DNA of 64,000 nucleotides from Octopus vulgaris. Its lineage: Eukaryota. The position numbers and the translations under genes are program-made. Below the pieces are notes generated by a model. That model did no database searches, was not told where the DNA came from, and saw only the letters and a list, made by a program, of their open reading frames with translations. The stretch spans positions 53,940,001-54,004,000 of the forward strand of contig OX597814.1 in assembly GCA_951406725.2 (NCBI GenBank). The letters run 5' to 3'. Shown piece after piece: positions 2,071 to 62,494 of the stretch; position 1 is the first letter of the stretch, and each line of letters opens with the position of its first letter.

Positions 2071-2888
2071 TGTAACACTATAGTGTATTGTGCAGGTCGT
2101 GGTCTCACGAGGTGAAACTATCTAATAACGACTCCGTTCAGAAGGCTGGAATAATACATATAATGTGCCAGTGAGGAAAAGAGAAAGAAACACAACCGAA
2201 TAGAATGTTTAAGAGAGTTTTATTGATATTTTAACATGTGTCTGTGTATGCGTCATGTATACAGAATAATAGACAGTCTGTCACGAGAACAAAGTGTGTG
2301 TGTGTGTGTGTGTATAGGTATGGATGTATGCATGTGCGTTAAGTACTTATAAGAACCATAATGAAGGAAACAGTGAGAAAGTCTATAATGAGAAGTTAGA
2401 CGAATATTCATAGACACAAGAATGAGAAATATCAGTTTCGTAGTCAATTGTACACGGCAGTTGAAATACTGTATCAAGAAGTTGTGGCAATGATGCAGAG
2501 CTGGTTGCAGTACATTTCGTACGAAGTTGTGGCTATAATGCTACTGTCTGGGTCACTTGTACAGGAGTTCTCGCAGGTTGTATGTTTGCTGTTAACCATG
2601 GTGAAGTAATTCACAAACAGTGCTGTGTTAGAAGCTGTGCAGTGTTGCTTGAGCTGTGTACGTTAAGATGATGGTGGCGACGAAGAAAGAGATTACCGTA
2701 ATGCTGTTGGACAGGTGTTGTCGTCTGGCTCGCAGGTTGTGTTGTTGCTGTTGGTCCATGGTGAAGTAATTCACGAACAGTACTGTATTGAAACCTGGGC
2801 GTGTTGCTGTTGGACGGATGTTGTCGCTGGAACTAGCTGTGTCTTGTGTGGTCAGTGGCTAGACGTTACAAGGTCTGGAACCGAAGAA
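2071..2888 (-). mobile_element. 5'-truncated LTR (R-U5 part) of family A, same family as 6494-7429 and 63712-64000
   Basis: Reverse complement aligns by eye with ~6765-7330 (e.g. ctgtttgtgaattacttcacc, acaacctgcgaga, gccacaacttcttg, aataaaac..tctctta). Ends in TGTTACA at 2071. Internal ~160-bp-period duplication (2570-2640 vs 2730-2810). The U3/TATA part is missing and the LINE 3' end sits in its place. Confidence 0.75.
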
Positions 2889-3045
2889 TTTATTTACCTA
2901 TAAAGGTATACATAGAGGGGACACCACAAGAGACGAACACTTACATTCTTACAAATGGTTTGGGTTACAATGAAATGGGGAAAATCGGATAAAAGGATGA
3001 AATAAAATTATATACAATTAAAAGTTTATAAAATAATGTTCCGGG

Positions 3046-4978
3046 TTATTTTTCATGGTTAACCCGCCAGTTTTTTTCTCTTTTGGTTTTTTTTCTTTCT
3101 TGCCCGGCTATGCTAGCACGGCCCCATTCATCCTCAGCTTCCTTACTACAGACATCCATATTTTTCCGAACGTAGTTTGCGACAGGTACCTTTTCTTCAA
3201 ACGGATCTTTCTCAACAAATGGAAATTGAAATAACTTACCAACCCGTGTCCGGAGATGAAATGACTTATCCCAATCCCTTTCGCTCGTGTCGTCCATACT
3301 GTTTCTTTCAATTTGGCTGCTATGCAGAAAAAAAGATGCCTTCTTTTCCTTGTTGAAGGAAGAAGGCGGTACGATCTTAATCATGGACTCACTCGAGAGC
3401 CGTACTCTTTCTGCATCTGACATCAGTTATTCAACATAGGCTATCAACTCCCTCAACTCCTCAAAGTGTATGAAGGCGTGCGCGACAGTTTCACTGACGC
3501 GGCCGCACCTCGGGCATGTGGGAGAGGTGTCAAAACCGTGTCTAGACAACCTCTCTCGAACCGGTAAGGTCGATCGGTAGCACAACCAGGCCAAGGCTTT
3601 CTGGAAGTTATCCAGATACCTCGGCCAGAATGTCCTTCAGAACAGGTTGGTCAGTTGCTCCTCATCGAAGCCCAGAGTCTCCCCCAGGACATCGTCGGAC
3701 TTATGCTCTGCCAACCCTTTATAAAAATCCGCAGTGGTAACCTCGCTGCCGGTATTGCTCACCCGAGAGAACAGAGTGAGTGCTTGTCGGCACTCCTTCT
3801 GCCATCCTCCCATCCTAGGTCTCCGCTTGATCCATGTATCTAAGTCCCTGAGGGACTTCAGTTGTGGAAAGAGTTGCTTGGCATGCGGTGACCACACCTG
3901 CTCACCATCCAGATAGCACCAGAGATGTCTCAGCCTCAGCGCGTACATGCACATCATCAGCCAAGGCACCCCCAGTCCAGCCTTTAACGGTTTTTGACAG
4001 CAGATGGAGCGCCTCACAAGTGGCGATTTCCCTTTCCACAAAAAGCGGAAAAGGATCCGTTCCAACTTGGTCAGCCACAAACCGGGGCAAGGCACGACAG
4101 TTAGGCGGTAGGTTATCACCGATGCTATAAACACCTGTGCAACCTCGACCCTTCCTAGTAAAGATAACGTCATCCCAGACCAGGTCTGGGTTATGGCCGT
4201 CATTTTACTCGCCACTTCGCTCCAGTTTTTCTCCACCTGAAGATCTGGTCCAAACCAGATTCCGAGCAATTTAACCGAGCCCTGCGTCCAGCGTCCGACC
4301 ATGCTGTTGAGAGGCATCGACTTGCCGCGCCAGGTGCCGAGTTGCAAGCCGACTGATTTCTCCTAGTTAATTTTTGTCCCTGCCACCTGATAGATCCGTC
4401 GTTATTTGACCAATTCCACATTGGAACGCTCGGATTATCAAGTCTGTATCGATCTGCCAGCCTAAATCGCTTCAGCAAATCGATGAAGCGTGAGTTACAC
4501 TTCCTAACATTCGAGCCTGCGCTATCCAGGCATGTATCCAGAATAGCGTTAAAATCACCTGGCAAAACTATTGTCCTAGATGTCACAAGAAAGTTCTCCA
4601 GGCGTCGATAGAACTCATCCCGTTTGCCTAGCGTGCTGGGCGCGTGGATGCCAACCAACCTGAAGGCCTTACCTCTGTATGTCAGATCCAGAACGACCGA
4701 TTCGCCTTCTGGGTCCACGAAGATCGTACGTGTCTGCAGAGCCAAACTTTTCCGGAGCAAAACTACAACACCTCTACTCCACCACGCTTCTGGCTAGGAG
4801 ACATGATTTTCTCATAGCCATTTAGGAGAGTTTAGAAGGCCTGCAGTTTGTCCAGCCTGGTCTCTGTAGCAACCATAATATCAATTCTATGTGACCCGAG
4901 ATCGTCGAGGAAGCAAGCCTGCTTCTTCTTCGAACCCAGGCTACGGACATTTAAACATGCAATGCATAGCGTAGCCAT
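3046..4978 (-). pseudogene. Tx1 ORF2 pseudogene (endonuclease joined to RT C-terminus; RT core with YADD deleted near 4390)
   Basis: The endonuclease motif WNWSNNDGSI is directly followed, in another frame, by YQVAGTKIN*EKSVGLQLGTWRGK. No QG/YADD motifs are present. Confidence 0.82.
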
Positions 4979-5648
4979 ATCAAACACAAAAAAGAAAGAA
5001 ATTCGAGCTTACCTGCTCATTCATCTTTCGAGGGGGATTATTCTCAGTATTTCTGAGACAAGTCCCGCCCCTCCTTTCTTTCATACAAAAATGGTTCTAC
5101 TGGCGGGTTAAATACTTTAGGCAGTTCTTTCAGTTCTGTTGTCTCTTTTGGATGTCTACTTTTAAGTTTGTTGTATAATTTTCGAGCAATTTTCCCAATG
5201 TTACTGGGCTCATCTTATTGTCGTTGACATATAGGGATGTTTTGTGGTGAGGTCCAGTGACCCCATCCAGGTATTTGTTGTTTTTGTAAACGATTGTCGT
5301 AGTGTCCTCTCTTTCAGGAATATCGATTGTCTCCGACATAAACTTATTTTCTTTCTTTTTTTTCCTTTTCCTTCAGTTCAGGTTTCTTAACTATTTTGGT
5401 TTTTGGAGCCGCCTCCTGTGAATTGGTGGGCGACTCCAATCTCTTGGTTCACTTACGTGACACCGTCTGGAAGTACATATTTTCAGTAGACGGTGTCACA
5501 ACAAACTCTAGCTTCTCGGGGTTTTCCTCACTAATGGAAGCGGTTGGTAGCTGTGTAATGGCCTCCTGGTCCAGAAGCGCTGTCTCTTTACTTTTCCCCT
5601 TGGAGTCATTTTTACTGGTAGAGGCGGTCGTTCGCTGTGTAATGGCCT

Positions 5649-6447
5649 TGTAACGATAAATATGATTAGGTACTCAATATTATGAAATGTCGGAGTCAGC
5701 AGTTGTAACGATAAGTATTTGTTGTTATGACGGCAAGTTGTAAGATGTGAAAGATGGACAATGCATGAAACTTTAAGGAAATATTTATTTACCGTTACGT
5801 TACAATACCTTGCCTCGACGGGCAGGTTATAATAAATTCAAAAGCATTCGAAGTTAAGTTTGTGTTTGTGTCCTCTTCATTGTTTAGTAGTAATTACAGA
5901 GAGAGAGAGAATGATGTTGTAAGAGAACAGAATTAGAGCTAGTGAAAGTTGCAGGGTTGTGGGACGTTGCTGACAGTAAATTTCATTTCTCTCGCTGACC
6001 GGGTCTTTAGTAGCTGCATTCCTTGTGATCATGATTCTAGCAGTCCGTTCTCTAACTAATTGAGTCGTCACTAGCCGCCTCGCTCAGTTATCGCCAAGTG
6101 ACTACTTGGTTGAGTCGTCACCATGTGACTGGACTCGTTGAGTCGTCACCCACTGATTTTTGCTTGGGGTATTCTTGCTTTTATAACTCTCCAGAAGGAT
6201 AGATATACCATTAAGAACTATAGATTTAGTTGGTGGTTTTGTTATCTCTATTCTAGCTTTTGGTGAAGTAGAAGAGGTTAGAAAGTGGTGAAGACATTAT
6301 TTCGGCCTAGCTAAAGACATCTGGAAAATGTAAAACTGCTGTCAGAGAAAAACCATTGTTCCACTGTGGGAAAAGTTCTGTTGAAGTGTTAACTTAAATT
6401 TGACTATGGTGGATCGAATCCACTTCATGCATGCAAGATCTACTACA
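5649..6447 (-). mobile_element. Solo LTR, family B (799 bp), Gypsy-like 4-bp TSD
   Basis: Termini TGTA...TACA. Perfect TSD GCCT (5645-5648 / 6448-6451). Minus-strand TATAAAA at 6185-6179 and AATAAA at 5789-5784. Three TGAGTCGTCAC motifs at 6061, 6111 and 6139. Confidence 0.85.
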
Positions 6448-6493: not shown

Positions 6494-7429
6494 TGTAGCG
6501 TACATTAATGAAATTCTCTCTCTCTCTGACATATATAACATAAATACGGACGTAGCAGATATCGGCTAGACTTCGGCCGTTTGGACCTTGTTGTGTCCAC
6601 TACTCTGATTGGTTGGTATTGGCGCAATGTCTCTTACTCTAATACGCACCAAGGTGCAACCCAACCAATCGCAGCCTTCTGATAAGGTCCCGTGACACAG
6701 TCTTCTAAATCTCCGTTGGAGCCTCCTAGTCCCTATAAAAGCTAGTTACAACAACCGTATTTCGTCACAGCCAGTTCCAACGACAACCACACCAGCAGCT
6801 CACATGCAAACTCAACTTCGTCCAGCAGCATTCAGGACCTCCATCTCTGTCGCCTCCGTCCTCTTTACGACGCCAACAACATCTCTACGTACACAGCAAA
6901 ATCGCTCAGGTTCAACTCCTCACTGTTTGTGAATTACTTCACCGTGGTTTACAGAAAGTACAACCTGCGAGATCTTCCTGTATCAAGTGACCGGCAGCGG
7001 CATAGTAGCCACAACTGCTTACATGACATGTGCTTCAACCAGCTCTGCTTCTACGCCACAACTTCTTGTTACAGAACTATTTGTACCTGGCTATGAACTG
7101 GTGTCTATCATCATGTGTGAACTTCTTCTGGCGTCCTATTATAAATTCTTTCTATGCTCATCTCACACGCATACATCCTTGTTTGTACACACATACACAT
7201 TATGTATGCATGGTGGCCTATTATTATTATTATTATATATGTACTTATGTCACACACACGTTAACACCTAAATAAAACCGTTCTCTTAACATTCTACGGT
7301 TGTGTTGTTTTTTTTTTCCTTCTGGCACTCATACTCATTTATCTATATTGCTTTTATTGTAAGTGACCATGCAGTGTATTAAAAGGAGTCATTCATTCGT
7401 CACCTCTACTTTCGCACAGTTGTTCTACA
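6494..7429 (+). mobile_element. Solo LTR, family A (936 bp), 4-bp TSD
   Basis: Termini TGTAG...CTACA. TSD GAGT (6490-6493) / GGGT (7430-7433), one mismatch. CCAAT boxes, TATAAAA at 6734-6740, AATAAA at 7271-7276. Homologous copies at 2071-2888 and 63712-64000. Confidence 0.85.
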
Positions 7430-8460
7430 GGGTCATCTTTACTGGTGGATGCAGTCGCTCGCTGTGTAACAGCCTCCTCGACCAGAAATACCGCCTCTTT
7501 ACTTTTCCCCTTGGGTTCGTCTTTACTGGTAGAGGTGGTCTCCCACTGTGTCACAACCTCCATGGCTGGGGGGACCGTCTCTTTGTTTTTCTCTTCTTCT
7601 TCCTCCTCTGCTTCCTTGTCTTTTTTTGTTTGTTTTTTTTTTTTTGGTGGGGCATTTTGACCTCAGGTGCCCTTTTATTCCACATTGAAAGCATTTGGAT
7701 CTTCTCCCCTCCACATGGACTGTCAGTATTGACTCCTCTATGTGTATCGTTTCAGGTAGACCTTCCAAATCCAGATTTCTCACTTGTGCCAGGATCCCCA
7801 TTTTGACCCCGCCAATTCTGTGGGGCGTCTCTGGAGATCTGAATAATATTTATTTTGTCCTCTCTCTTGTAGAGGAGTGTGGCAACAATCCATGCTACCT
7901 CCACCTCTCATGGGGATGTTCGTAACCCTTATCCGAGACATTCTGCATCCCAAATATAGAGACAGTAGCATGACGTTGCCACATAGCAAAGTTCAAGTTG
8001 AGAATTCTCTTGCCTTCTCAATTGATTTGAACCTTGCTTCGATGGTCGCGTACCTTGTGCCTCGGGCTAGGTATTTTATTTTGTTCATCACCGGCCCAAG
8101 ACACCTTTCATCTGTGCTTTCCTCCAAATATTCCAGCATCTTCTTTTCCACATCATATATTTTATATATAATGGTCTTCTCCTTCATCTTGTTTCTTATT
8201 TCACTTGGGGGTGTTATCTTACTTTCACCGTTTTCTTTGGTGATCATACCATATTATGCTCGTATATCCTCCATCTTTAAAGTAATTGTTTCAAGTCCGC
8301 CAACAGCAGCAGCAAAATTCATTTTTCTTTTTTTTTTTTGTCCTTCTTCAGAAGACATTTTTAATATTTTTAAATAAAAATATTTGAAAATTTCACAATT
8401 TTTCTGAACAGGAATGCAGTTCAAAATTAACCGCAAGTGGTAAACACAATTTTTATATCC

Positions 8461-9641
8461 TTCCCCTTTTTATGTGAGAAGCAACTGATTTCATTTTAGA
8501 AACAAAGCCTTTCACTTTTCCAGTCATGGCTGCAGCTCCAACTGATGTAATGTTGATCAAATTAGTCAATGGAATATTTTTATCATTAAAATACTGCATT
8601 ACTTCATTGATCTTCTCCATTAGTAGTTTCAGACAAACTCTTAATGAATAACATTTCTTCCCTTATACCATCTTCATGGATGAATCTGATATAGACCAGA
8701 GGATAGCTTGGTTATGAATTGTGCTATAATCAACCTGGATAGAAAAATTTGTTTTTTAGAGAATTTCTGCAATCTTCTCTTATCTATACAAAATTAGACA
8801 TTTCATCCTGTCTTCTTGTAATTGTACTCAGAGTAGATGCAGCATCTTCTCCCAGAACCTCATTTACACAAGTTATCATAGCAGGCTTGACAAGTTTCTC
8901 ACCACAAATCTGCAACCTTGGCAATAATTTCAGAGACCAAATAGCTTGGTTTGAGTGTCTTAGCTTTTTCAGTATTTATCTTCTTTACAAAGTCAGGTAG
9001 TTTGATTGGCTGTATTTTCTTTTTATTCTCAAAATATTCCCTACCTTTAACAACAGATGATGGATGCCTTAATTTCTGGTGCTGCTACAGCTTAACTTTC
9101 TTCATGGAATGATTTGTCATGATGGCATCACACTCAAGACAGATTTTGAGTCTACAGATACAAAACCAAACATGATAAAATCTTCTTTGGAGTTCCTCAG
9201 TTTTACCTTTTTAGCAGTTGATTCAGACATTATTACAACTGATCTTTAAAAAAAATAAAAATAATAAATACTTTATTTCTATAAATTAAAAGTATTAAAT
9301 TTATTATTAAGCAATATTGTGTAGTGATCTATTAAAAATATCAAATTTATTGTGAAACTGTCGTGATTGTAAAATTTAAATTATGTAATTCTTGATTGTA
9401 ATATATTATTGATTATATATTATACATTATTGATTATGGAATAATTATTGAATTTTATTTTATTATTTATTATTCTGTCTTCATATAACTTCTTATTAAC
9501 TAACAGTGTCTTTATTATCGAACAATATTGTGTAGATCTGAAATGGCTTCAATTTTTTTTATGGTTACAAATTCTCTGGGGACCACTATAAAATTTCTGG
9601 GCACCACTGGTGGGTCGCAGGAACGACGTTGGGAATCATTG
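8461..9641 (-). mobile_element. Buster/Charlie-type hAT DNA transposon, 5' half (ZBED5/FAM200-like transposase pseudogene from ATG 9230)
   Basis: Frameshifted translation MSESTAKKVKLRNSKEDFIMFGFVS..CLEC..MKKVKL..HPS, SYLVSEIIAK..GEKLVKPAM, FSIQVD.ST..YIRFI..EEMLF, GAAAMTGKVKGFVSKMK. The terminus CAATGATTCCCAAC at 9641 is flanked by the 8-mer GTTTAAAC (nnnTAnnn, Buster-type target). Confidence 0.85.
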
Positions 9642-10713: not shown

Positions 10714-25392
<14,679 letters not shown>

Positions 25393-33369: not shown

Positions 33370-35100
33370 GCACCACCATATGGTGTTGCTACATAATTTT
33401 ACTTCACAAATGCTTTTTAGGTATTGACTTTTGGTTCATGAGGAAGCTTGATGCCACTGCCCTCATCTGCACCTCCTGCCGTGAAGTTGGCCCATCTGGG
33501 ACACTTGACAGTAAGAGGTCCAGCTTTGTTTTGAAGACACCTATGTCCACCCCATGCAGGTCTCTCAGGTCCTTTGGGAGGATATCGAAGAGCTGAGGTC
33601 CTCTGAAGCTAAGGTTCTTGCAGTAGCTTGTCTTATACCTTGATGGCAAATTTGGAGTCCTTGGCACTATGCAGTGGCACCCAGTTCTAGTATTTGTGTA
33701 ACTCTTGAATCCAAAGTTTGGGACAAGTCCCTCCAGGATCTTCCAGGTATATATTATGGCATATCTTTCTCACCTACGCTCTAAGGAATACAGTCTTTCC
33801 CAGTAGCTTATATGCTGCATAGAGGCTATCTTCTTCGTGTTGCTTCGTTGGATTGCCACAAGTTCTGAGATTAACTTGACACTGGTTGGTGACCATAGCT
33901 GAAAGCAATAGTCAAAGTGGCTTAGGACAAGTGTCCTCCAGAGGACCATCATGGTTTCCTGATCTCTTGTTCTAAAAGTTCTAAGAATCCATCTGATCAG
34001 CCGCCTGTATTTCATTGCCAATTTTGCAACATGCACATGGAAGGATGCATCATTACTCATGTAAATGCCCAGGTCTCACACTGACTGTACCTCTGGGATT
34101 GCAATCCCTCCAGGTCCAGTGTATTTAATGGGTTTTGCATGCTGATAGCACAAGTCTTGAAACTTTTCAGCATTAAACTGCACGCTATTCTTTTCAGCCC
34201 ACTTGTATATTTCATCCAGCTCACATTGTCTTCAGAGTTCTGTATTACCTGTGAGACTTTTATATAATCTGCATAACTTGTGATCGTGGCTCTCTGTGAG
34301 GCTGAGAGCATGTCTGAGATGGCCATTATGAACAGTAGTGTTCCCAAAACAGTGCCTTGTGGAAAACCGTGTCATTGGAGGTGGCCCCACTGGCTACTAC
34401 CACCTAACTTCTAGAAAGTCATGAAGCTATTCTCCCATTTTTCCAGCTATGCAGAGATCACACAGTTTGTGCCATTTCTCAGGCCATCTGACATTGGGCA
34501 GATTGAAGTCTCCCATAAGAAGTACACTTAAGTGTTGTTCTAATGTAACTAGAACTTCTATTTTTGTAAGGCGGCCTTCAAACTTGCCTACATGATTTGG
34601 AGCACTGGGAGGGCAATATGTAGCACATATAACTACATCAAGTTGTCGTATATGTACAATTAGTGTGTCACATACTGAATTTGAGTGTATCAAAAGGACC
34701 TGGGGTGTGAGGTCTTTGCGGATGTACATAGCAACTCCACCATGAGTCCTTTCTTTCCTGTCAGATGTGTTTCCATAAGTGCTATGGATAAAGCTTGATT
34801 GTATGCAACAAGGTCTCTCAGGAAAGGAATTTCTGTCCTGTTACTAAGTGTTAACAGTCCTCTAATGTTCAGTAAGAGCACAGATGTGATGTCTGTGTTG
34901 TTGCCAATAGTGCCCACCTTGGGTCTATTTGCTGTGGTGGTCTTGTGTATTGGGGATAGTCCCATCTGTGAGATTGATGTAGCCTGGTCAGCTGCTGTAC
35001 AATCTTTTGTGCCATGCACAAAAAAGATTGTTGTTCAGCAGCTGCCCTTTCAACATGTTGATATATATTTCCACTGGCTTTGTCCAAACAATGAAAGAAA
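33370..35100 (-). mobile_element. CR1-group LINE remnant (APE endonuclease plus RT C-terminus, internally deleted)
   Basis: LLLNIRGL..METHL, GGVAMYIRK, ATYCPPS, LLMGDFNLPNVRW, then GFPQGTVLGTLLF, SYADYIK, WILRTFRTRD..LWRTLVLSHFDYCFQLWSP, YSLERR, SFRGPQLFDILPK..FKTKLD. Many frameshifts. Confidence 0.88.
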
Positions 35101-36667: not shown

Positions 36668-39652
36668 TCAAAGACTCCCAAGCATTTCAGAGGCCCACAA
36701 CTTAAATGTCCGATCATAGGAAGAGGAAGCCATATATTTGAGATCTGGTGAGATGTCAAATCCCATGATTTTGCCTTCATGACCAGCAAGTGTTTTCATA
36801 GGTGACCATGTAGGGTGGGTCCATATCTAAAAACATAAAAATGAAACAAAAACAGAAATTAATCATTCAGTATATTTACAGATATAATTAGGTACATTAT
36901 AAATGATGATGGATGACATTTGGACATTTCATATCATGTTGCGAAATGTTATTGATACTCAAAAGGTTGAGGATTTCTAAACGAAATACAAACAAAATAT
37001 ACTTCATTCTAGAAGACTGAACAACACCTTAGAACTAAGTAGGTTCTGGCTCTTTACAGGACACAAATATTAACCATAAAGGAATACAACTTCTATAATT
37101 TATATCTGAACATACAGGATTATTTCTGGGACAAACTGGTCACTCACTAGAAAAAGCCACACACACACACACTCTCTCTCTCTCTCTCTCTAGCATCTAA
37201 CCCTCTATTGAATTGGCACTTCTTTTATTGGTTCTAATTATAGTTCCACTCATTTTGCATAATACATTACCACTAGATGGATAATTTTCTATTGCAATGA
37301 TATCTACTTTGAACTTATCTTCAATAAAGCCTAATATACTCACTCCACCTTTGTTCATAAATCTCATTTTCTCAAATCCAAGATCTCTCAACTTGGAACA
37401 ATTTAAATTTAACATTAACATTCACAAGATCATCCAGACACTCCCAATAGGAGGGCTTAAAGTGACTGTGGACATTGTAATTTAAAAAATTAAAAATCAT
37501 CTAGAGGTTTCTTTTGACTTTAGAAATTAAATAGGAAGATTCAACATTGAAAAGAAACTATTTTGTACCATAAGCTCAACCTCCATATATGCCATACCAC
37601 ATACAGCTTTTTGCAATGATAGTTCAGCAATATCAAAACTTCCTCTCTCACAAAGTTTTTTTTTTTCTCACTCAATATACCTCATCAAGATGTAACCTGT
37701 AGAATGAAACCAAACTAAATAAGACTAAATCAAACAGTTCCACCATTCTGGTAAAGATATAAATTGAAACCACTGACCTTAGATGTATTGTCATATGAAG
37801 AAGTTACCAGGTAGTGACCATGGTCAGCTGTAAGTAAATATATAAAAGTCAATCACAAACAAAGGTCATGTAAAATATTTTTAAAACGTTAAGCAATTAA
37901 GATAAATATTATTATTAGCAAAGGCGTGGCTGTGTGGCACCTTGGCCAAGTATCTTCTGCTATAGCCTTGGGTTGACTAAAGCCATGTGAATGGATCTGG
38001 TAGATGGAAACTAAAAGATGTCCACTGTGTGTGTGTAACTATATGGGTCATTGTATTTGCGTTTGTCTCCCACCACCACATGATAACCAGTGTTGACTTC
38101 TTTATGCCCCCATAACTTAGTGGTTCAGCAAAAAGAGTAAGTACCATGCTTAACCCTTTCGTTACTGTATTTATTTTGAGATGCTCTGTGTTTCTTTCAA
38201 TTACTTTAAATATAACAAAGAATTTAGTAAAATAACTTAGTTATCATTAAGTTAGTGTTAGGAACATAAATTGTGACTAAAGTTTGGTGGAAGATTTTAA
38301 TTCAAAACTTATGAAAACAAGACATTTATACTCAGAACCAAAGCCAGTTTCAGCTGGGTTGGTATCGAAAGGGTTAAACAAAAGATAAATACTGAGACTG
38401 ATTTGTTCAACTGATCCCTTCAAAGTGGTGCTCCATCATGGCCACAGTCCATGAAGCAAGTAAAAGTCAAAAGATAATCACTGCTACCAACATGAATTTT
38501 AGTAGCACTGTCACCCCTGTCAATGTTAGATTGTCCAGGTTTCAAATCCCAGCATGTACACTGAGTCCTGATCCCAGTTATGATTCCAAACTAAAACCAT
38601 TTCATTTATAATGTTAATTTTTTTAAGGAAAGGTAAAGTGAAAAGGTGGCAGAAGCATTAGCATGCTGGGCAAAATGCTTAACGGTATTTCACCTGTCTT
38701 TATGTTACGAGTTCAAATTCTACCAAGGTTGACTTTTCCTTTGATCTTTTCGGGGTTGATAAAATAAGTACCAGTTAAACAATGGGGTAGATGCTATTTA
38801 CTTACCTTCTCCTCCAAAACTGCTGGCCTTGTGCCAAAATTTGAAACTACTATTTTTAGGAAAGGTACAAATATCATAACTATTTATTATCCTTCAACTA
38901 TAAATCTGGCGAGAAAAGCCAATGTTATATTAAAAAGAAACATAGTATAAAGTCAATACTAACACAGGTATTAATTATTTAAAGATGAAATGAAATGCAT
39001 GATCTTTTAAATTCTACTAAACAGGTCACAGAATACCCACATTTTCAACTATGAGCTTTCCACATCAAAGAGATTCTGTCTTTCTCAAAAAAGCATAACT
39101 CCAATATACGAGATGCATGTCAACATTATCATTGACATCCAAATAATAATAATAATAATCCTTTCTACTATAGACCTGAAATTTTGCAGGATAGGGTTGG
39201 GGTGCTGGTCAATTACATCAACCCCAGTTCTGGCAGAGTTAACCTTGGTGAAATTTGAAATCAGATCATAGAATTGGATGAAATGCTGCTAAACATTTTG
39301 TTTGGTATGCCAAAGATTCTGCCAGCTCATTGCCTAAATAATAATAATAATAATAATAAAAATGTCACCCTTTTCAAGTCTAACCAGGCTCATGAGCCCG
39401 ATTTCCTGGTTTCTGTGGCCTATGTGTTTCCCCCAGCTGGACGGGACGCCAGTCCACCGCAGTGTTACTCAAGAAACAGGAAGAGAGAGTGAGAGAAAGT
39501 TGTAGCGCAAGAGTACAACAGGGGTCACTACCACCCCCTGCTGGAGCCTCGTGGAGCTTTTAAGTGTTTTTGCTCAATAAACACACACAACGCCCAGTCT
39601 GGGAATCGAAACCGCGAGTCCGCTGCCCTAACCACTGGGCCATTGCGCCTCC

Positions 39653-39696
<44 letters not shown>

Positions 39697-40416
39697 CAAG
39701 TTCAAATTTTTCCACAAGGGCAGCAATTTTGGGGGAGGAGATGAGTTGATTACGTCGACCCCAGTGTTCAGCTAGTACTTATTTTACTGACCCTGAAAGG
39801 ATGAAAGGCAAAGTCAACCTCAGCAGAATTTGAACTCAGAACAAAAAGATGGATGAAATGCTGATAAGCATTTTGGCCAGCTTGTCACCCTAATAACAAT
39901 AACAATAATTATAATAATAATAATAATGGTTTCAAAAATTTGGCACAAAGCCAGCAATTGTAAGGGAGAAGGTATGTCAATTATATCAAAGCCAGTGCTC
40001 AAGTGGTACTTATTTTATCGACCCCAAAAGGATGAAAGGCAAAGTCAACCCTGGTAGAATTTGAACTCAGAGCATAAAGTCAGGAAAAATGTTGCTAAAC
40101 ATTTTGTCTGGCATGGTAACAATTCTGCTGGCTCATTGCCTTATTAATAATAATAATAATAATAAGCCTTTCTACTATAGGCACAAGGCCTGAAATTTTT
40201 TTTTGGGGGGGGGAATAGTCAATTACATTGACCCGTGTTTCACTGGTACTTAATTTATTGATCCTGAAAGGATGAAAGGCAAAGTCAACCTCGGCAGAAT
40301 TTGAACTCAGAACCTATAGACAAATGAAATACCACTAAGCATTTCACCTAGCCTGCTAACAATTCTGCCAGCTCACCACCTTAACAACAACAACGACGAC
40401 GATGATGATGATGATG

Positions 40417-59898: not shown

Positions 59899-60094
59899 GG
59901 TTGGCTACTTCTGAAAAGTGAAAACAAAAAAAAATAAGTTAAAAGAAGAGAGAACAAAAGAAATATACAGTGGAGATGATTTAACTAAAACAATATCAAA
60001 ATGTTTTTTTTGACCTGGTCATTATTTTATAAGATGCCTCATTGATTTCACAGAGCATACTATATTAGAGGTACTTAATTTATTAACCTCAATG

Positions 60095-60327
60095 AGGGCG
60101 GCGAGCTGGCAGAAACGTTAGCATGCTGGATGAAATGCTTAGTGGTATTTCGTCTGTCTTTACGTTCTGAGTTAAAATTCCGCCAAGGTCGACTTTGCCT
60201 TTCATCCTTTCGGGGTCGATGAATATAGTACCAATTTCGCACTGGGGTTGATGTAATTGACTTAATCCCTTTGTCTGTCCTTGTTTGTCCCCTCTATGTT
60301 TAGCCCCTTGTGGGCAATAAAGAAATA
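60095..60327 (+). mobile_element. Full-length Deu/Nin-domain tRNA-SINE with Tx1-like tail and perfect 15-bp TSD
   Basis: TSD TTATTAACCTCAATG at 60080-60094 and 60328-60342. ggcggcgagctggcagaaacgttagc head; gtcgactttgcctttcatcctttcggggtcgat core; tail tgtcccctctatgtttagccccttgtgggcaataaagaaata. Confidence 0.9.
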
Positions 60328-62494
60328 TTATTAACCTCAATGGGAATTGCTCCAGTTCACTCAGCTGTAAAACTATGAGAAAAACTAGTTAAAGCAGATG
60401 TAAAACTAATTTTTAAAACATTTAATATGACCTAATCCAAATGAGCAACAGTTAACTATAAAGTTCTATCAGTAATAGAGAGTGTGACTAGCTAAGCACA
60501 TAGGGTAACAGATAATCACCCATAAATTCAATGGTTTGTGTCTTATCTTAGGTAACACGTTTTTTCTACGACTAGGCATTTGACTCTTAAATGGTCCAGT
60601 TCAGCTAGTAGAAAATAGATATCATAGGATAGGAATAATTCATTGCTCCAAGCAGTGACAGCATTGTTGATTTGATGAATGATTTGTTAGCTAGTAGCAC
60701 CAAGTTTAATTCTGCCTGTTAGAAAGATACCTGTATAAACTAGCATCTCATCCAAATAGAGGAAGCTTTATTTCCCATTTGCTTAAGGTTACAAAAACTG
60801 TAGTATGTATCACGTAATATGGATCATTGTGATTTGGAAATGGATTAGCTTTATACCAGTAATAGCAAGTGTATATATGTGCAGTGACTAATTATACATC
60901 ACATGAATCATTATTCAGTTTCTTCTAGACAGTGGTTCACAAATCCCATCTCTTTCATGGAATTAAGATTTTACCACTATTTAGAATGAAAGAGATACAC
61001 CTTAAAATCTTGATACAAACTCATACTATGATGATGAATGGCTAGATTCTTTTTCAACAAAGTGCACAACATTATCTTGCAACTCTATCAAAAGAAAATG
61101 ATGTTGAACAATTTTCCAAGAGTATTTCTTCACAAGATAATAAAATTAATCGAAAGTTACTATACTTAAATAGATTGCCCTTAACATATAGAAGTTAAGC
61201 TTGCTTGGAACAGTGTGATACCAACTTAGTGTAAATTAATCTAAATTAATTCACACAAAGTTGATGACAAGCAGCAAAGCATGAAATTACAATTGACATC
61301 ACCGCCATGTACAAGCTACAGAAATAGAGAAAGAGGCGGGGAAAAGAAGACTATAGAGCGTTCATATTGCTAAACAACTGGTTAAGCTTGATTGAGCAGA
61401 CCTACGAACCAAAGGCAATCCAGTGGTAACCATCCCGTCCTTTTTCGAACAGATTGAGTGACATGTAAATGTTCCCTAACTGGCACATTCATGTCTTTTT
61501 CCAGGCTACAATTAGCAGTATAAGTAAAACAACAAACCTAGTCGAAGTACTAGGCTAGAAGGGAATTTTTTGACACTGGTCCTGTGAGTACAAAATATTA
61601 ATTTCTTACACAAGCACAAAACTAGATTCGTGCGATAGAGATAATCGACTGAGTCGACACTAGTATATGACAGGTACTCATTTTATTGGCCCCCAGAAGA
61701 ATGAAAGCCAGTTAGATCAACTTCAATGTTATTTGAATTCACGCCGTACAGGGGAAGTAGTTTAATGGTGTAGAACTAGCATTCTACACCATTCTTGCGA
61801 AAAGGAAATTTTAAAAAGTCAGTTGTCAGGTAAAACATTCAAACCCTATATCCTAGAATAAATCTGACAGGGAGGGGCGATAAGGTTCAATGTTGTTTAC
61901 TAATTATAACAATTCATATATTATCAGTTCCTTTGAAGAAAAAAGTTTTGGCTTGTTCGTGTTTCTAGCGTTACGTTGTTTTTCATTATTATTATTACTA
62001 ACATTGTAAATTTTGGTCTTGAATTAATTCATTTTTCGAAGCGTTACTACAAACCCTCGAGGTTTTCTACCATCTCTCATACTGAATTTTTTAAAAATCA
62101 AATTTGTGTATGTGTACTTGAGTAGAATTCCTCAACGTTATCTTTTGATCAAAACTTTTAAAGAATCGATTTCTGATATCTTTTAATCTCAAATAAAACG
62201 AATATAAATTGAAGAGATTATTGGTTGTCTATGTCAGCAAGAAACAATAAACTACGTTGCTGGGTATCGACTAAAAGCGAACGTTTTGAATAAGATCCCT
62301 TAATCGGAAAAAAGTCGCAATTCGTTTCACGTTTTTTGATTATTGTATAGTTAACCGTTATTTATTTTCTTACTATACACAAATTCACTTTTGTTGAGTA
62401 GAACATTTAATCGACTGAAAGGATCTTATAATACTAATGCTAATATTTATTCCATAGAGTTTCATACTTTTGGATCCGGAGGAACAAAACTTAC

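Follow-up and report, generated by a model that had tools for sequence, protein, structure and literature searches.

A 3′ tail shared by a lineage of probable Tx1-type LINEs and one abundant SINE subfamily in Octopus vulgaris

Introduction

Several described systems bear on a window of Octopus vulgaris DNA, the whole stretch of 64,000 nucleotides (nt) analysed here (GenBank assembly GCA_951406725.2, contig OX597814.1, positions 53,940,001 to 54,004,000), in which a long interspersed nuclear element (LINE) and a short interspersed nuclear element (SINE) end in the same 3′ tail. One is the crocodilian pairing of SINEU with Tx1-Mar (Kojima, 2015; PMC4494074), where a SINE was likewise inferred to be mobilised by Tx1-clade elements, and where the paired Tx1 families target other transposons, two of these being long terminal repeat (LTR) elements. 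However, that pairing was drawn from shared targets and U1/U2 heads, and SINEU has poly(A), whereas the octopus pair has a poly(A)-less tail of predicted structure and targets that are not clearly shared; the part of that paper dealing with SINEU-1 reports no significant Repbase match for its 3′ half. Closer in the form of the tail are ZmSINE2/3 with LINE1-1_ZM and SINEX-3_CR with L1-1_CR (Ohshima, 2013; PMC3747384), in which an L1-group LINE and a SINE have a 3′ hairpin with compensating stem letters and conserved flanks. Those pairs are from plants and algae, whereas the octopus LINE is an animal, target-specific element whose conserved part is the lower stem and not the loop. Table 1 of the same paper holds no Tx1 or animal L1-clade pair, its L1-clade pairs coming from maize/sorghum and Chlamydomonas; stringent recognition in the L1 group is argued there from plants and green algae, and the poly(A) recognition of mammals is proposed to be derived. 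A model for recognition is provided by the L2 tails UnaL2, ZfL2-1 and ZfL2-2 (Hayashi, 2014; PMC4176376), as the L2 3′ stem-loop is bound by the region between endonuclease and reverse transcriptase (RT) and is required for retrotransposition. The L2 elements differ in that they belong to another clade, have the loop as their specificity element and end in short repeats, while the octopus stem-loop is a predicted one (the "TX1" of that paper denotes protein mutants and not the clade).

Family-specific repeat or microsatellite targets, as found here, are known from the Tx1 families Tx1L (into Tx1D), Keno (into U2) and Kibi/Koshi (into microsatellites; PMC4494074), although the octopus LINEs differ from the families listed there in that a solo-LTR promoter, the head of another SINE and (TATC)n are all targeted with one conserved tail. 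Tail-swapping SINE superfamilies of molluscs similarly join one head and body to several tails, but their reported partners are CR1, CR1-Zenon, L2 and Nimb, not Tx1 (PMC4824008, PMC11481361). Tx1 is not mentioned in the accessible main text of PMC11481361, PMC4824008, PMC5786205 or PMC3531059, nor in the accessible supplement of PMC5786205, and the accessible portions of PMC4758252, PMC5804259 and PMC5753468 hold no tail-sharing Tx1 pair. Thirteen recently active L1-Tx1 families have been reported from O. vulgaris, with no partners named in the portion of the text available, together with a SINE/LINE expansion at a distance of 0.065, close to the age of the SINE described below (PMC13282606). 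No tail-sharing Tx1/SINE pair was thus found in the open-access literature, the repeat libraries Repbase, Dfam and SINEBase lying outside that search. An initial annotation of the window had considered such partners of Tx1-type elements to be rarely reported; this agrees with the open-access text, with the reservation that a Tx1-SINE pair has already been inferred from targets (SINEU). At the level of the lineage, the sharing of a tail by SINE and LINE described here is real, and the partnership to which it points is apparently new for an animal L1/Tx1-type element.

Results

A tail shared by a LINE lineage and one SINE subfamily

The LINE tail lies at 2888..2935 on the minus strand and consists of a pyrimidine-rich run, a 14-nt motif (2923-2910), an ACCT/AGGT stem (2907-2896) and AATAAA (2894-2889), ending 4 nt short of the usual AATAAAGAAAT terminus. 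The SINE, a full-length monomer at 60095..60326 on the plus strand, has its LINE-type tail at about 60262-60326, where the same 14-nt motif (60286-60299) is followed by a GCCC/GGGC stem and by AATAAAGAAAT up to 60326; it is flanked by identical 15-bp target site duplications (TSDs) at 60080..60094 and 60328..60342. Re-reading of the sequence thus bears out the initial annotation in its description and coordinates of both ends and in the 14 identical nt, which are exact in the two elements. The window has two exact occurrences of the motif, and five with up to two mismatches against 0.32 expected.

A tail profile was trained on 97 LINE tails, with a match threshold of 15 bits. The window LINE tail scores 39.4 bits, having itself been part of the training set, and the window SINE tail scores 51.5 bits with this SINE-free profile. 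Matches were obtained for 180 of 183 SINE tails of the same class and for none of the 111 sister SINEs with other tails; as tail class was itself assigned by tail motifs, the independent evidence lies in the score of the SINE-free profile and in the blank sisters. One SINE subfamily and the LINE lineage therefore have a homologous 3′ tail that the sister SINEs do not have, as the initial annotation had supposed of a single subfamily.

That the tail is native to the LINEs is apparent from 227 loci with an ORF2 (second open reading frame) C-terminus, which were reduced to 140 unique ends and are not a random sample, since known copies served as seeds in the searches that yielded them. Of these 140 ends, 116 are followed by the tail (92 of the 97 training tails and 24 of the 43 others), while none of 140 reversed controls matches. 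By eye, several of the 24 ends with no profile match have a divergent tail; cuts or interruptions account for others. Intact copies of three young families, A, B and C, terminate in the tail, so the feature is no SINE fragment fused to a LINE, the outcome that would have undone the earlier claim. Counts are taken from the profile because tail calling by regular expression, which gave 86/106, 101/129 and 99/140 over successive rounds, proved unreliable and was dropped; its miscalls included L024, L194, L200 and L209, and L200 and L209 were kept out of profile training.

The LINE lineage

The lineage has the features of the L1 group, namely an ORF1 and an ORF2 with an APE (apurinic/apyrimidinic-type) endonuclease, an RT and a C-terminal CCHC. 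In the copies L062 and L080, zf-CCHC, Exo_endo_phos, RVT_1 and zf-RVT domains were found, with a zinc knuckle in ORF1. Intact ORF2s occur in three families (A, 1140-1150 amino acids; B, 1148; C, 1152) that are 56-65% identical to one another in ORF2 and all carry the ORF1 knuckle. Against Protein Data Bank entries, in a comparison confined to L1 and R2, the family A ORF2 scored 230 bits with human L1 ORF2p and about 73 with R2; three vertebrate proteins with the automatic names TX1/YTX2 gave 295-320 bits. Among named protein relatives, those nearest came from Argonauta and Acanthosepion, and an Atlas search returned nothing beyond generic endonuclease-RT clusters. Target-sequence preference, a trait of many families of the Tx1 clade (PMC4494074), is present in the sampled subfamilies. 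The lineage is likely Tx1, which belongs within the L1 clade (PMC3472496), rather than L1 proper, a placement drawn from similarity scores and target specificity and not from a tree.

Family A (L171-L180, e.g., G000:C9:14300700-14308700) is young, intact and 5.4 kb long. Family B (L181-L189, e.g., G000:C5:29177200-29185200), also young and intact, occurs in head-to-tail arrays with a spacing of 5.27 kb, its own 5′ end coming directly after its 3′ end. Family C (L309, L316-L345, L376-L383) is very abundant, young and 6.2 kb long, with many intact copies; with 4,272 first-look candidates it is the most abundant family sampled, and older copies of it, met incidentally, are 91-95% identical to a young one.

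The SINE subfamily and its sisters

In the fetched loci, 294 unique copies of the SINE body were found, of which 183 end in the LINE-type tail; two other tails account for 61 and 24 copies, and 26 remain unclassified. Exact copies of the last 28 nt of the SINE number 86,814 in the 2.8-Gb genome, tandem units included, against 0 for a control. The median divergence from the majority sequence is 6.9% (81 copies), and 5′-truncated copies retain just the tail. A second, older copy of the same subfamily, with a LINE-type tail, lies in the window at 24354..24580 (plus strand). Sister SINEs, alike in head and body but with two other tails that have (ATT)n-like ends, form a cluster at 38635..40380 (no strand assigned), and sister sequence also lies at 22743-22815; no sister tail reaches 15 bits with the LINE profile. 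Body and tail occur elsewhere in tandem arrays with a 184-bp period (L035, L367-L370 and others), and 36 of 112 full-length SINEs continue into a second unit from the internal GGTATTTCG, 34 of these second units having no upstream head.

Compared by eye with the A and B box consensus, the head has similar motifs at about 60104-60116 and 60166-60177, while ARAGORN and Rfam gave no match on it. The Deu/Nin label attached to the SINE initially could not be confirmed: the body has no likeness by eye to two printed Lottia Nin rows or to the MESC alignment, and motif searches for its body domain in the supplements of four papers came back empty.

A predicted stem-loop in the tail

One tail was folded for each subfamily, and for the most part the same stem-loop of about 30 nt was predicted, whose lower stem hardly varies (UCU/AGA and UGU/AUA, separated by an unpaired A or G across from an A) and is topped by a 4-bp helix of free sequence. 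Since the folds mostly have this one shape, the 14-nt motif and AATAAAGA are likely the two arms of one element. The top helices of the LINEs read ACCT/AGGT, TGCC/GGCA, GGCC/GGCC, GATT/AATC, GATC/GATC, AGCC/GGCT and TGTCA/TGACA, and that of the SINE GCCC/GGGC. With the arms split at a fixed point, the top hairpin formed in 21 of 22 representatives, and arms paired with their own partner gave -4.0 kcal/mol, against -1.97 ± 0.29 kcal/mol for swapped arms, a difference reached in 0 of 20,000 permutations. Upstream controls of this arm-swap test gave p values of 0.30 and 0.98, and letter-shuffle controls 0.06, 0.32 and 0.0007, at -0.8 to -1.3 kcal/mol. An earlier version of the test, with the split set for each sequence, was replaced by the fixed split with controls. 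The observation that the hairpin letters differ and still pair, made at first on two elements, holds in the predicted folds across subfamilies.

Within the SINE, 166 ungapped tails vary commonly at four sites, one of which lies outside the stem; the three inside the stem-loop are a change from G-C to G-U, a change from U-A to U-G and an unpaired position. The second of these is also a change from AATAAA to AGTAAA, present in 95 of the 166 tails, so that AATAAA after the hairpin, correctly described for the window's LINE and SINE, is not general to the subfamily. The TTRT loop of the initial annotation is not conserved, as the loops of the LINE subfamilies vary (TTTAT, CCTATA, CTGTGT, TAAAT and ACTT). 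On these predictions, a stem-loop structure in the shared tail is probable.

Insertion signature and targets

Neither the LINE nor the SINE has poly(A), and the end position is common to both; A-runs at the junction are no longer than 5 in 95 of 97 LINE ends and in 174 of 178 SINE ends. Of 10 family A copies, 7 have TSDs of 15-16 bp, as do both non-tandem family B copies. Among 113 full-length SINEs, 36 have TSDs of 10-26 bp (median 15); in the sister SINEs, TSDs of 9-21 bp were found in 10 of 34.

Fourteen LINE ends, that of the window included, lie at one site about 25-35 nt past the TATA box of a repeat of about 1 kb. This repeat has termini of the form TGTAG...CTACA, its TSDs are 4 bp long (exact in 5 of the 7 copies that could be delimited), and its sequence reads as a solo LTR. 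For this target repeat there are 1,590 first-look candidates, and several LINE subfamilies target it about 30 nt after the TATA box; L009 and L012 adjoin its apparent 5′ terminus on the opposite strand. The empty site includes GTATTTCGTCT, which the SINE head has too, in another register. Family A is directed to one fixed site in the tRNA-like head of a different SINE (8 of 10 copies, at the 5′ and 3′ junctions), family C has a (TATC)n-type flank at nearly all of 30 ends, and additional LINE flank classes start with TAGT, TCAGAAG, ACGCCCG and ATC. The target site of the window LINE's subfamily starts with T or C, while the first flanking base of the SINE is A in 174 of 178 cases, T in 2 and C in none. 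The commonest SINE flanks are AGGTAT (75 of 178) and ATATAT (25 of 178), and (A)GGTA begins both sides in 12 of 36 SINE TSDs. These (A)GGTA starts, together with the run-on units, would fit either a preference of the endonuclease or base pairing between read-through RNA and the target.

Candidate donor and mobiliser

Since the LINE tails are old and varied, the SINE tail is uniform and the SINE body also occurs with other tails, transfer likely ran from LINE to SINE, and the SINE likely captured its tail from one of these LINEs. In a ranking of 104 LINE tails against 178 SINE tails, the best matches over the whole tail (62 nt) were L089- and L126-type copies, and those over the stem-loop (36 nt) older family C, L025- and L198-type copies. 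The window LINE tail came 77th of 104 when the last 36 nt were compared and 84th with 62 nt, partly because its 4 terminal nt are missing; its subfamily scored 49 against the SINE, compared with 87 and 85 for the best copies. Mean pairwise distances are 0.134 for this subfamily and 0.117 for the SINE, so the two are compatible in age. Given its rank and a target start that disagrees with the SINE flanks, the window's LTR-targeting subfamily was probably neither donor nor mobiliser, and the latter role, in which the initial annotation cast the window LINE's own family, is not supported.

The SINE burst overlaps in age with the LINE subfamilies and with the older family C copies, and family C was likely active during it, as suggested by its 4,272 candidates, many intact ORFs and the 91-95% identity of its older copies. 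The (TATC)n-targeting family C is accordingly offered as the leading guess for the mobiliser of the SINE, although its junction, ATATCT, fits only part of the SINE junctions. A search for the exact donor, with a 22-nt shared core preceded by non-SINE letters, gave 298 matches. From a listing of 100 of these, 43 distinct matches were examined; 4 were family A-related LINEs with other hairpins, and the others were deleted or 5′-truncated SINEs. Searches seeded on L030, L025, L198, L126 and L309 brought further subfamilies, none with the hairpin of the SINE.

Discussion

The LINEs of this radiation, which are target-specific members of the L1 group and likely Tx1, carry a conserved, poly(A)-less tail of about 60 nt that is also found on one high-copy SINE subfamily. 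Taken as a whole, the data make it reasonably probable that the SINE captured this tail from one of the LINEs, and that the ORF2 protein (ORF2p) binds the predicted stem-loop and copies both elements. Under this model, ORF2p would likely bind the tail stem-loop as in zebrafish L2 (PMC4176376), and its recognition of the tail would be stringent. Reverse transcription would start 1-2 nt beyond GAAAU, and no poly(A) would be copied because synthesis begins just past the stem-loop. The endonuclease, perhaps aided by read-through RNA, would set the target. The SINE may have acquired its tail through a template switch from LINE to SINE and would then be copied in trans by the LINE machinery. A broader version, which is possible but which we hold only tentatively, is that the Tx1 radiation keeps an ancestral, stringent mode of the L1 group, in which the stem-loop fixes a poly(A)-free start and targets may be switched freely, partly through pairing of read-through RNA with the cut DNA; the SINE, with more than 86,000 copies, would exploit this mode, and its GGTAT junctions would derive from dimeric masters that read on into the following unit.

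Several observations weigh against the model of stem-loop recognition and mobilisation by this lineage. RNAalifold gave no consensus structure on the plain MAFFT alignment, and covariation on the unfitted alignment was not significant (49 of 500 shuffles reach it). On a model-fitted alignment of 38 rows, which also took in SINE copies and weak matches, none of 500 shuffles equalled the observed value for three of the five measures; significance is confined to this alignment, which leans to structure and has the top helix paired in just 68% of its cells. The covariation check proposed initially thus gave different answers on the two alignments. The folding z-scores of single tails average -1.3, the lower stem says little about pairing because it is nearly invariant, and one of the three letter shuffles of the arm-swap test reached p = 0.0007, though at merely -1.3 kcal/mol. 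In zebrafish L2 the specificity lies in the loop (PMC4176376), yet the loops vary here. The count of 180 in 183 SINE tails is not independent of tail-class assignment, no LINE with the exact hairpin of the SINE was found among the 43 of 298 pattern matches examined, and the commonest SINE junction, AGGTAT, is used by no sampled LINE. Lastly, TSD length does not separate the SINE from its sisters, whose ranges overlap; of the comparison of TSDs and ages suggested at the outset, what stands is that TSDs of about 15 bp occur in both elements and that the ages overlap.

Some of these points lend themselves to other explanations. A UGUA-like motif and AAUAAA have a role in RNA 3′-end processing, and the tail, though captured from the LINE lineage, might be conserved for such processing or for RNA stability, with an ORF2p as relaxed as that of mammalian L1. 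This would accommodate the AATAAA of 77 of 97 LINE tails, the weak covariation on the unfitted alignment and the non-conserved loops, but it agrees poorly with junctions that have no poly(A), with the young, intact family A, in which AATAAA is lost and the pairing pattern kept, and with the SINE, where AATAAA is kept in just 69 of 178 ends and its change preserves a U-G pair; we regard it as unlikely. It is very unlikely that the tail is just a remnant of its capture, with amplification of the SINE due to a LINE of another clade (RTE, CR1, Dong-R4). The GGTAT/ATAT junction of the SINE is exactly matched by no sampled member of the lineage, its TSD lengths overlap those of the sisters, and the tails were sampled from this LINE lineage and not from other clades, all of which would suit such an origin; however, the SINE terminates at the very nucleotide at which the LINEs do, without the simple-repeat ends of its sisters, and just the tail survives in 5′-truncated copies.

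The reading that the window's own LTR-targeting subfamily was both donor and mobiliser, the latter role having been proposed in the initial annotation, draws on the exact 14-nt identity and on compatible ages, but the low rank of its tail (in part a matter of the 4-nt loss), its score of 49 and its T or C target start, set against SINE flanks beginning with A, leave it a very slim chance. A fusion of a SINE fragment to one LINE copy, or a chance match, can be given next to no credence: such fusions could arise, as the L024 locus has a SINE inserted downstream, but the tail stands at 116 of 140 ORF2 ends, among them those of intact families 56-65% identical, and with subfamily-specific helices.

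If mobilisation of the SINE through the shared tail is correct, an animal Tx1-type pair would supply the missing animal case of stringency in the L1 group, and a likely engine would be assigned to one of the most abundant repeats of the genome. The three families with intact ORFs, different targets and different top helices would moreover allow tail, endonuclease and target to be exchanged experimentally. As a general principle this is not new, and repeat libraries may already contain the pair without comment.

Other features of the window

The window LINE is itself a decayed and interrupted copy, here described by alignment to the full-length reference copy L062 (5.3 kb, 15-bp TSD). It is inserted in the 3′ half of a solo-LTR-like target at 2100..2887 (minus strand; lower bound approximate), at the site found in the 14 LINE ends. 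Its 3′ part, 2889..4387 (minus strand), comprises the end of the RT region, the CCHC region and the 3′ untranslated region (UTR), is 88-91% identical to L062 and contains stops and frameshifts; zf-RVT was found in the corresponding region of L080. At about 4385 a deletion has removed some 1.5 kb of linker and RT core, since 4385..5648 (minus strand), covering the ORF1 end and the endonuclease segment of ORF2, corresponds to L062 1160-2393 and L062 picks up again at 3920; the Exo_endo_phos match in this segment is weak. A remnant of the 5′ UTR and the N-terminal part of ORF1 lie at 7431..8469 (minus strand; 80% identity to L062 177-1204), so that the 5′ end is about 180 nt short of L062, and the 5′ TSD is not retained.

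Within ORF1, a solo-LTR-like repeat of the same family as the insertion target of the LINE occupies 6494..7429 on the plus strand, with TGTAG...CTACA ends and a 4-bp TSD with one mismatch, and an additional insert lies at 5649-6444. Adjoining the truncated 5′ end, at about 8470-9000 (minus strand), is decayed coding-like sequence that resembles, by eye, a DNA transposase fragment. Pieces of a different LINE, with an Exo_endo_phos_2 domain, were found at 33404-34840 on the minus strand.
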